From Nitrospirota bacterium (lineage in GTDB: Bacteria > Nitrospirota > UBA9217), in contig CAVWHO010000020.1 of the NCBI GenBank assembly GCA_963754875.1, forward strand, positions 401,405-465,404: a stretch of DNA of 64,000 bases. The letters run 5' to 3'. The first letter of the stretch is position 1, and each line of letters starts with the position of its first letter. Made by a program: the position numbers. Shown piece by piece: positions 48,001-51,000 of the stretch.

Positions 48001-51000
48001 ACCAAAATGAAAGCCGCCGCAAGCGCAAGGTAGGGTGACGAGGGAATCAATCGCAGAAGCACGACCCCGGTCAAGGCGGCTAAAGAAGGAGACAACCAGA
48101 GGTGGTGGTTCCGGCTTTCCCAGGGCGACTTATTCATCACCCATGCGCCGAATGAGAGAGCGGCAATCTCCGGAAAGATGATCTCCTTCTCCTGGGCAAG
48201 GCCCGCGGCTGCCACCATGACCACGACAAGCAGAATGGCCAGGGGCTGCACGCGTTTGTTTATTTTCATAGGCAAAATGAAGTTCCCCAGATCAGTCGTA
48301 ACGAAATCGATAGCAAGCATACTATCACTTTAAGAAAGAATTTTCAAATTGTCGATTTCTAAGCCGGGGGATTTATACCATGAATAATTTTGTGATATAC
48401 TAAACATACCGGTCGTTCGGTTTTATACGGTGAAGCACATGAAGGCGGGAATACGTAAAAATCATCCGGCGGGAGGCGCTGATGAGAAACGACCCATGCA
48501 GATTACTGGATACAGGCGATCAATTCCCGCCGATGGATATTCCTACCGTACAAGGCGATAGAATCATCCTACCTGATTATTTCACTGGTCACTGGAACGT
48601 GTTCCTGATCTACCGGGGACATTGGTGAACGTTCTGCCGCCAGCAGTTGCTGGAATTTCAGAAGACCATTGCCGAGTTTGACCGCAGGCATATCAACGTC
48701 GTTGCCGCATCAGCAGACCCCGTGGAAGAGGCGGCAAATACGGTCAGCAAATACGGAATTACCTTTCCCGTGGGATACGGCCTCTCGCCGGCCGATGTCT
48801 CAACGGCAACCGGCGCCTTCTTTAATCCCGAAAAACACTTTATTCATGCGGCAGGATTTATCATTGGACCGGATGGCAAAGTGGAGAATGCCGTATACAG
48901 CAGCAGATCTATAGGCCGTTTGACTGCAAAGGACTGTTTGGCATTCATCAAATCCTGATAATGAGCGGATAGCCCGCTTATCGGCCGATTTGTGCGAAAA
49001 TAAAGATAGTCGAGGTGATCGGCATGCCGACAAAAGGGACAATGACAAAAGAGAAAATCCTCCGCGAGGCTATCGGCCTTTTTCATCAACGAGGGATCGA
49101 AGCGACGAGCATCAACGATCTGCAGTCCGCCACGGGGATGACGAAAGGCAGCCTTTATTTTCACTTCAAGAACAAGGATGCCGTGGCGAAAGCCGCGATT
49201 CGCAAAGCCGGCTTGGAATTCCTCGTTTTTCTCGACACTGCTCTGGCCGGAAAAACTCCCGGTGAAAGACTGGATAACTTCTTCCGAAGGGTCGTTGAGA
49301 AGCACAAGGCACTGCGGTTTGTCGGCGGCTGAATCTTCGGGAATGCCGCTCTGGAGATGAGCGACAAAGACAGGGATATGGCGGAGCTCGTGAACGGAGT
49401 ATTCGATGAGTGGCAAAAGAAAGTCAGGCAGGTTGTAGCGGCTTCTCAGAAAAACCGCCAGGTTCGAACCGATCTTTCAGCCGATATCCTTTCCCGCCAT
49501 ATCATCATGACGATAGAAGGCGGCATCATGCTGGCCAGGCTCAAGAAAAGCGAGAAACATCTCAGGGAATCCCTAATATCGCTGAGAACCCTCCTGGGGT
49601 TGAAGATTTAAGAACCATGTAAGGATCATTACATACCATAAAGCGTTTGCATGGTATCGTGTTTGCAGACGGTAAATCATATTTCAATGCGAGCGGCAAT
49701 AAACACCATGAACCAATAACGCGGAGAGAAGGAGACGAGCAATGACTGATTATTACAAAGCGGAGGACCTGGACAAGTTCGGCGATGTGGGCAAGCACAA
49801 TCCCGCCCTCTTCAAGAAGTTTATTGACTGGTACACATCGGCGCTGGAACCGGGAAAGCTTACCAAGCGCGAAAAGGTGCTGATCGGAGTCGGCGTAGCC
49901 CACGTCATTCAATGCCCCTACTGCATCGACGCGTATACCAAATCCTGCCTTGAAGAAGGCATGAGCCTGGAGCACATCACCGAAGCTGTGCATGTTGCGT
50001 CGGCCATTCGCGGGGGAGCTTCGCTGATCCACACGCTGCAGGCGCACAATGCAGTTGAACGGAATTCTCTTTAAGCGATCGGAAAGGACTTGACAGGCGA
50101 TGATCAGGAAATTCAGTGAAACAATTTTATCCCATGGGCCGCTCAAGGCACTTGAAAGCAAAATTCTGCAGGTCAACCTCGGCTATCGCTGCAACATGGC
50201 CTGCAAGCATTGTCATGTGTCCGGCGGTCCGGCACGGAATGAGATCATGGACCGGGACACCGCTGAACGGGTCCTGCAGGTGCTGCTGAAGAATCCTTTT
50301 GAAACGCTCGATCTCACCGGCGGCGCACCGGAGCTGAACCCGTCCTTTCGCTGGATTGTTGAGGAGGCGCGAAAGGCCGGCCGTCATGTCCTTGTCCGGA
50401 CAAACCTCACGATATTTTATGAGCAGGGAATGGAAGACCTTCCCGAGTTTTATCGGGACCATGGCGTCGAGCTGATCGCATCCCTGCCGTATTATCTGGA
50501 GGACAGCGTTGACCGCGTGCGCGGCAGCGGGGCCTATCAGAAAAGCGTTAATGCCCTCAAAAGGCTGAATGCCCTTGGATACGGACGGGATGCGTCGGGC
50601 CTCGTGATAAGCCTGGTCTACAATCCTCCGGGGCTGTTTGTCGCGCCGGGCCAGTGCGCATTGGAGGCGGAATACAAGAAAGAGCTTGGGGGGCGCTTCG
50701 GCATCGTGTTCAACCGGCTGTACACCTTCACCAATATGCCGATCGGCAGGTTCAGGGATTTCCTGATCAGGACGAACAATCTGGAAAAGTACCTTCAGAA
50801 GCTCGCTGACGCCTTTAATCCGGCAACACTGGAGGGCATCATGTGCAGATATATGGTGAATGTGGGGTGGGATGGAAAACTCTATGATTGCGATTTCAAC
50901 CAAGTGATGGGGCTCCCGACCGGTCCCGGCGCGCCGCCGCATATCAATGAATTCGACTATCAGGCGCTTGCAGGGCGGTCGATCGCGGTAGGTGACCACT

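Follow-up and report, generated by a model that had tools for sequence, protein, structure and literature searches.

The region analysed here (the window) is a stretch of 64,000 nucleotides from the genome of a Nitrospirota bacterium (GTDB lineage UBA9217). At 49024..49611 on the plus strand it contains a frame of 195 codons with one internal stop only, a TGA at 49330..49332 (context FVGG*IFGNAALEM), which was recorded by gene callers as two genes, 49015..49332 (102 aa) and 49357..49611 (84 aa), lying in the same frame with a gap of 24 nt. In Pfam, the N-terminal half alone matches only TetR_N, and the C-terminal half alone enters the model TetR_C_13_2 at position 35 of 103, which reproduces the cut described in an earlier note on this locus. 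After read-through, the match to this model spans positions 1-99, and PF00440, PF16925 and PF21993 all exceed their cut-offs, with PF16925 and PF21993 being complete. This supports the proposal made there that both calls represent one TetR/AcrR-family repressor of 195 residues with a predicted selenocysteine (Sec) at codon 103. The protein has no other Cys or Sec residue.

An AlphaFold model of the regulator, calculated with Cys placed at position 103 and an alignment of 18 rows, has a mean pLDDT of 91 and nine helices, with residue 103 located just before helix 6, so that the N-terminal helix-turn-helix, the nine-helix fold and the C-terminal ligand domain of the TetR/AcrR family are all present. 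The closest structures are 3qbm, 3bru, 3eup and E. coli NemR 4yze (TM 0.79-0.88), with TM values of 0.83-0.88 to 3qbm/3bru and of 0.81 to NemR 4yze_A. The best family and structure matches belong to the AcuR / LmrA-YxaF-like group (NF051457, PF16925, PF21993; 3qbm, 3bru, 3eup), and 3qbm, 3eup and 3bru indeed show the GGC/RGC motif at the column of residue 103, as had been reported. The regulator reaches 87.2 bits with the AcuR model NF051457, compared to a cut-off of 247, and is not an AcuR equivalog; no NCBIfam model is matched above its cut-off, and none of the matched models represents a Sec form. In an alignment with E. coli NemR (identity 17-23%), the residue numbering of which was verified with the six Cys given in PMC7464077, residue 103 corresponds to Cys106 and Arg172 to Lys175.

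Column 103 is occupied by Cys in all of the best 120 of 304 full-length homologs, which were aligned for this purpose, and position 172 by Arg in 119 of these 120. From 553 matches in the genome collection, 80 loci were retained, 79 of which have TGC or TGT at column 103 and one of which (L068, Syntrophobacteraceae, 50% identity) has TGA; since one of the two search patterns demanded Cys, this count is biased against TGA forms. The UGA thus stands in place of the conserved Cys of the ligand-binding domain motif, as claimed before. All same-genus orthologs found (45-61% identity) likewise have Cys; they number three among 14 same-genus genomes searched, rather than the five previously given. 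Besides the window's own, the protein database holds nine N-terminal stumps, i.e. the six of 102 aa already noticed and three of 114 aa, all of which end in GG and are known from protein entries alone. For one TGA-type stump (P0005) and a 66%-identical Cys form (P0012), the longest contig on record has 6406 bases in each case, which hints at adjacent Sec and Cys paralogs.

The recurrence of the TGA was examined in metagenomes with a DNA pattern open to TAA, TAG, TGA and TGG at column 103. Of the 38 hits, 26 are TetR genes, every one with TGA, and TAA, TAG or TGG at this column was found in none of these 26 loci; the other 12 hits are unrelated DNA (six TAG, four TGG, one TAA and one TGA). This stop-codon control is a partial one, because TGA is one step away from a Cys codon and TAA and TAG are two. 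A profile search, which made no use of the DNA pattern, covered 401 genomes of the phylum of L068 and 401 genomes of the window's phylum, with up to eight candidates scored per genome, so that the resulting counts are lower bounds. In the phylum of L068, seven of 128 matches have an internal stop, six being a TGA at column 103 (G061, which carries L068, G209, G328, G300, G097 and G375) and one a TAG, which was rejected as a recoded codon since it lies at random elsewhere in the gene. In the window's phylum, the window's gene is the only one among 68 matches with TGA at column 103; two further stops in this set were rejected as recoded codons, as they are natural gene ends. A plasmid search gave no close relative of the regulator, only distant TetR proteins with less than 60% identity. 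Beyond the window, TGA at column 103 hence occurs in 26 metagenome loci and six further genomes.

In addition to a quick first tree, from which L140 and L142 (cut or broken N-terminal halves at contig ends) and three duplicate loci were left out, a careful tree was calculated from 18 TGA forms and 40 chosen Cys forms with column 103 masked. It shows seven changes between the labels Cys and TGA, at least six of which are forced by well-supported branches, and one Cys form is nested within a TGA clade. A single clade of TGA forms was rejected (p-AU 5e-9; p-AU 6e-4 for the eight closest forms). From this we conclude that TGA at column 103 is present in at least six separate lineages, gains and losses of TGA not being separable on a tree without a secure root. 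The weak point conceded in the earlier note, namely a single TGA with one related TGA locus, is thereby removed.

Downstream of the TGA, we predict a bacterial SECIS (bSECIS) hairpin, CGCUC-UGGAGAU-GAGCG, at 49347..49363 on the plus strand. It starts 14 nt after the TGA and its loop begins 19 nt after it, with positions +18..+22 (numbered from the T of TGA) pairing with +30..+34. The bSECIS model described in PMC13188914 comprises a loop of 3-9 nt, a stem of 4-16 bp, a G in the first two loop positions, a spacing of 16-37 nt and an MFE of at most -7.5; the predicted hairpin fits this description with its 7-nt loop UGGAGAU, 5 bp, 19 nt and -10.3 kcal/mol. Of 29 distinct TGA forms, 25 have all five stem pairs of the Watson-Crick type, and of 126 Cys forms, none does. 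If G-U pairs are permitted, the stem is formed in 29/29 and 11/126, respectively, and the loop GG at +24/+25 is found in 29/29 compared to 69/126. The metagenome DNA pattern itself fixed five hairpin positions, and the stem is kept in all seven TGA forms that were found without this pattern. Among the first 24 TGA forms, 11 have T-A and 13 have C-G at the pair +21/+31; as the sequences are related, this represents a few events, not 24. As a control, 1023 ordinary TGA ends of long ORFs in the genome were inspected; 116 of these have at least five Watson-Crick pairs according to a loose bSECIS rule, and we therefore rejected the presence of a hairpin alone as evidence, whereas a hairpin in the exact register of the regulator gene was found in none of the 1023. 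A hairpin like the one to which the earlier note had pointed at a second TGA locus does recur among TGA forms, but a single 5-bp hairpin is weak evidence by itself.

Upstream of the regulator gene, at 48482..48958 on the plus strand, lies a gene for an AhpC/TSA peroxiredoxin-like selenoprotein (PF00578, 4e-20 on read-through) with an in-frame TGA at 48626..48628, a UxxC motif (W-U-TFC) and a hairpin of its own, which is a known selenoprotein type and ends 65 bp upstream of the regulator gene. This gene is preceded by a putative -10 hexamer of the unit's promoter, TATACT with TG before it (48396..48401, plus strand), which was assigned by consensus match only (four such matches in the region, 2.6 expected), and 3 nt further by a predicted operator, a palindrome of the ACCG-N6-CGGT type at 48405..48424. 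According to a matrix built without the window's locus, this site scores 18.4 bits, the best value in the window and the second in the genome. A single site elsewhere scores higher; it falls inside a coding gene and was rejected as an indication of a wider regulon, and weaker sites in the genome overlap with the range of shuffled sequences (maxima 12.4-16.1). Of 88 upstream regions, 85 contain a palindrome of the type ACCGACCGGTCGGT behind the -10 box, compared to a mean of 2.3 and a maximum of 7 in shuffled sequences, the consensus having been chosen by eye from the same upstream set on which it was counted. A palindromic operator at the own promoter, as is typical of the TetR family, is hence predicted for this regulator as well. 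Because the operator precedes the AhpC-like selenoprotein gene, the regulator gene is the second of its unit and, contrary to what had been stated, does not head the island.

The regulator gene is followed on the plus strand by putative target genes for an AhpD/CMD peroxidase-like protein (49742..50074; TIGR04169 over cut-off) and the radical SAM selenoprotein ArsS (50100..51053, TGA at 51033..51035; TIGR04167 over cut-off), by osmC-like and HD domain genes, and by genes for a DUF547 protein (52417..53241, domain match) and a FAD-dependent disulfide oxidoreductase of the PRK06370 type (53254..54780), both of which are recurrent neighbors of this regulator family according to the neighborhood comparison. 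No plus-strand terminator was found in 48200..51200. Farther away on the same strand, near merF and merA, lies a gene for a DF-like::MerB fusion (58730..59716) with an in-frame TGA at 58943..58945. Of the two selenoprotein neighbors named in the earlier note, ArsS stands, while the DF::MerB gene has its TGA but reaches only 48.8 bits with the DF model (cut-off 70). The genes for AhpD-like proteins, ArsS, DUF547 proteins, a VTT-oxidoreductase and a PrdB/GrdB-like selenoprotein recur beside the Sec forms of clade A, to which the window's gene belongs, and of clade B, and also beside many Cys forms; Cys orthologs share the operator and the selenoprotein neighbors of the Sec forms. In clade C, the palindrome is related but not the same, and the neighbors belong to acyl-CoA metabolism. 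The role in metal(loid) detoxification suggested before is deduced from the names of neighboring genes, and one Sec lineage adjoins acyl-CoA metabolism genes instead.

The PrdB/GrdB-like protein, read through as V-U-PYC, is encoded directly behind the regulator gene at L118:3784-4500, also in L123, L132, L138, L141 and L142 and in many Cys loci; it scores below all NCBIfam cut-offs and is possibly an unnamed selenoprotein subfamily of the TetR regulon. In the clade C loci (e.g. L115, L136, L139, L150), the Sec regulator has a C-x-G-G-U motif, often with a Cys beside the Lys at the Lys175 position, and the neighboring genes code for acyl-CoA ligase, 2-hydroxyacyl-CoA dehydratase, enoyl-CoA hydratase and DUF3795 proteins.

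Selenols are known to be more reactive than thiols. We propose that the gene only looks broken and very probably encodes an intact repressor, in which the internal TGA is read as Sec at the position of a sensor Cys. The decoding step, in which SelB and tRNA-Sec would read UGA103 as Sec via the downstream hairpin, has strong comparative support, and we regard it as highly likely that UGA103 encodes Sec. The repressor dimer would bind the palindromic operator over the promoter and would thereby silence its own unit, i.e. the genes for the AhpC-like protein (with Sec), the regulator itself (with Sec), the AhpD-like protein and ArsS (with Sec), and probably the genes behind them. Sec103, at the start of helix 6, would occupy the place of the NemR sensor cysteine. 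By analogy with NemR-type regulators, DNA could be released upon covalent modification of Sec103 by an oxidant, an electrophile or a reactive sulfur species, or alternatively upon binding of a soft metal(loid), e.g. As(III) or Hg(II), at this residue; judged from the neighboring genes only, we somewhat favor the former group over arsenic or mercury species. With selenium, the sensor would then be more reactive than the cysteine version used by most relatives. This sensing mechanism as a whole seems to us likely, with clearly less confidence than the decoding of the UGA.

NemR Cys106 is reported as the sensor residue for reactive chlorine and electrophiles in PMC7464077, and NemR (PDB 4YZE) shares with the regulator the fold, with U103 aligned to Cys106 (TM 0.81), which agrees with the NemR-like assignment made before. 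It also shares self-regulation by a repressor and a palindromic operator over the own promoter, both of which are predictions here, and redox enzymes encoded downstream. In contrast to NemR, the regulator has Sec instead of Cys and a single chalcogen residue instead of six Cys, and Arg172 takes the place of the sulfenamide partner Lys175, whereas clade C and two further Sec lineages have a Lys there. The bleach chemistry of NemR can thus not simply be assumed. Furthermore, the predicted targets are ahpC-like, ahpD-like and arsS genes rather than nemA/gloA, and the neighborhood consists of genes for AhpC-like, CMD, ArsS, OsmC-like, DUF547 and FAD oxidoreductase proteins. The TetR repressors AltR of Pantoea, a thiosulfinate sensor reported to be released through Cys100 (PMC13178969), and GbaA of S. 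aureus, reported to be released through Cys104 in helix 6 (PMC8693949), have one conserved residue at a similar position, which is Cys and not Sec; the equivalence is one of position as given in these papers.

Alternatively, Sec might be decoded at UGA103, with its main selected role being that of a translational gate that responds to selenium supply. At low selenium, the 102-residue piece would be made, repression would fail and the unit would be transcribed more. This would fit the anatomy of the protein, since a stop at UGA103 precedes helices 6-9, the dimerizing part in TetR proteins according to PMC8693949; moreover, the unit holds Sec-containing AhpC and ArsS, six clade B loci carry the PrdB/GrdB-like selenoprotein, and autoregulation via the predicted operator would close the loop. 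However, the UGA is always found at the one conserved sensor Cys and at no other position, although a gate could sit elsewhere. In addition, Cys orthologs have the same operator and the same selenoprotein neighbors, and clade C genes are mostly located beside acyl-CoA ligase, dehydratase and DUF3795 genes, in which no Sec codons were seen. We therefore consider it rather unlikely that gating is the main selected role; truncation as a selenium gauge would agree with the anatomy of the Sec sensor, but this anatomy can be explained without it. If it did operate, a one-gene feedback loop would link selenium supply to the transcription of a selenoprotein-rich unit. The broader idea that Sec transcription factors have arisen repeatedly in the NemR/AcuR-like TetR branch, with the same codons recruited as SECIS, and double as a selenium gauge is a tentative one, to which we give slightly more credit than to gating as the main role.

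The Sec machinery is complete in this genome, which encodes selA, selB, tRNA-Sec and a selD that has an in-frame TGA as well. The five new TGA genomes all have selB and tRNA-Sec, and three of them have selA over cut-off. Since 114 of 121 genomes of the second phylum (that of L068) encode selB, co-occurrence with the Sec machinery was rejected as discriminating evidence. Sec is not required for the regulator, because same-genus genomes with full Sec machinery carry the Cys form. In one of the same-genus genomes (G003; C58, C105), three matches exceed the tRNA-Sec cut-off. A tRNA-Sec-shaped RNA with anticodon GCA and U73 lies directly after selD at G000:C13:54979-55084 (plus strand) and fits a selC* tRNA-Cys as characterized in PMC5389517; ARAGORN called no tRNA-Cys in this genome. 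According to the same source, tRNAs of this type occur in these phyla and insert Cys at UGA codons, so that UGA103 might be read as Cys by a selC*-type tRNA-Cys(UCA) and the protein would be an ordinary Cys repressor. Given that the selC*-like tRNA beside selD has the anticodon GCA and not UCA, as checked in this genome, and that a normal tRNA-Sec(UCA), selA and selD are present, this is very improbable.

The half of the gene after the TGA is, as judged from codon comparisons, under purifying selection. Downstream of the hairpin, dN/dS amounts to 0.12-0.17 among three clade A genes and to 0.05-0.25 among six clade B genes, similar to the 5' half in both cases; these values come from ungapped codon pairs, and many clade C pairs are saturated. 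The frame after the TGA has 92-94 codons in 26 of 28 loci, the exceptions being one cut at a contig end and one of 117 codons. A split regulator, in which two real polypeptides of 102 aa and, from Met112, 84 aa assemble, would be in accordance with the two recorded halves and with a start-like codon 112 (ATG, GTG or TTG) in 23 of 29 TGA forms. Yet codon 112 is CTG in the other six and lies inside the hairpin, codons 104-111, which would be non-coding in this arrangement, vary in their third positions while preserving the family motif, which also holds for forms detected independently of the pattern, and the sensor residue would be lost, which leaves this arrangement with even less probability than the reading as Cys. 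The least probable explanation, a nonsense pseudogene or a sequencing error, might be raised because TGA is one base from TGC/TGT, because the contigs of one DNA run (0.09 share) do not cover the regulator gene and because damage does occur (the random internal TAG mentioned above, and one Cys locus with a stop elsewhere), but it is already contradicted by the presence of TGA at column 103 in 32 further loci from at least six lineages, by the open frames and purifying selection after the TGA and by the TGA-specific hairpin.

With a UGA at a conserved Cys in more than one organism, a bSECIS hairpin, selA, selB, selD and tRNA-Sec, and constraint downstream of the UGA, the regulator resembles the predicted bacterial selenoprotein families in PMC13188914, which share a Cys/Sec pair, an in-frame UGA, a bSECIS hairpin, the Sec machinery and anaerobic Desulfobacterota/Nitrospirota hosts. 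Table 1 of that paper, which includes the families of Haft and Tolstoy 2025, lists enzymes, transporters, carriers, a DNA-repair methyltransferase and a 'putative regulatory protein, FmdB family', and no TetR or other helix-turn-helix regulator among its 119 prokaryotic families; the absence of DNA-binding transcription factors from such lists, as asserted in the earlier note, is borne out to this extent. The terms TetR, AcrR, regulator and transcription do not appear in the main texts of PMC13326102 and PMC12013277, with unrelated matches in parts of the supplements, and at the level of abstracts no Sec-containing transcription factor was found in the literature; the candidates listed by Deng et al. 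2026 may include the TetR family. Among the NCBIfam models (June 2026) matched by five TGA forms, none represents a selenoprotein TetR. In eukaryotes, selenoprotein H has been described as binding DNA, and the claim of novelty is therefore restricted to sequence-specific regulators of prokaryotes. In Methanosarcina, recoding has likewise been proposed for the conserved in-frame stop of a TetR gene (MA2902; PMC1914089); this case concerns TAG and pyrrolysine in archaea, is described there as unconfirmed and does not involve a Cys/Sec pair in the text compared.

NemR-like TetR repressors with predicted Sec form a real and multiply recurring selenoprotein family, which has apparently been unlisted so far and would extend the functional range of predicted bacterial selenoproteins to gene regulators with sequence specificity. 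Since one sensor, with one operator and one target set, occurs naturally with Cys and with Sec, the question of the benefit of selenium over sulfur would become accessible to a simple repression assay. The analysis also suggests a regulator and a predicted operator for the poorly understood ArsS/AhpD/DUF547/oxidoreductase cluster, and points to a systematic annotation error, with the 10 database entries found for the N-terminal half of TGA forms being stumps of 102-114 residues. At the contig end, window positions 61265..63817 contain two copies of a tRNA-Ala region around scrambled hydrogenase-like fragments, which looks like an assembly repeat.
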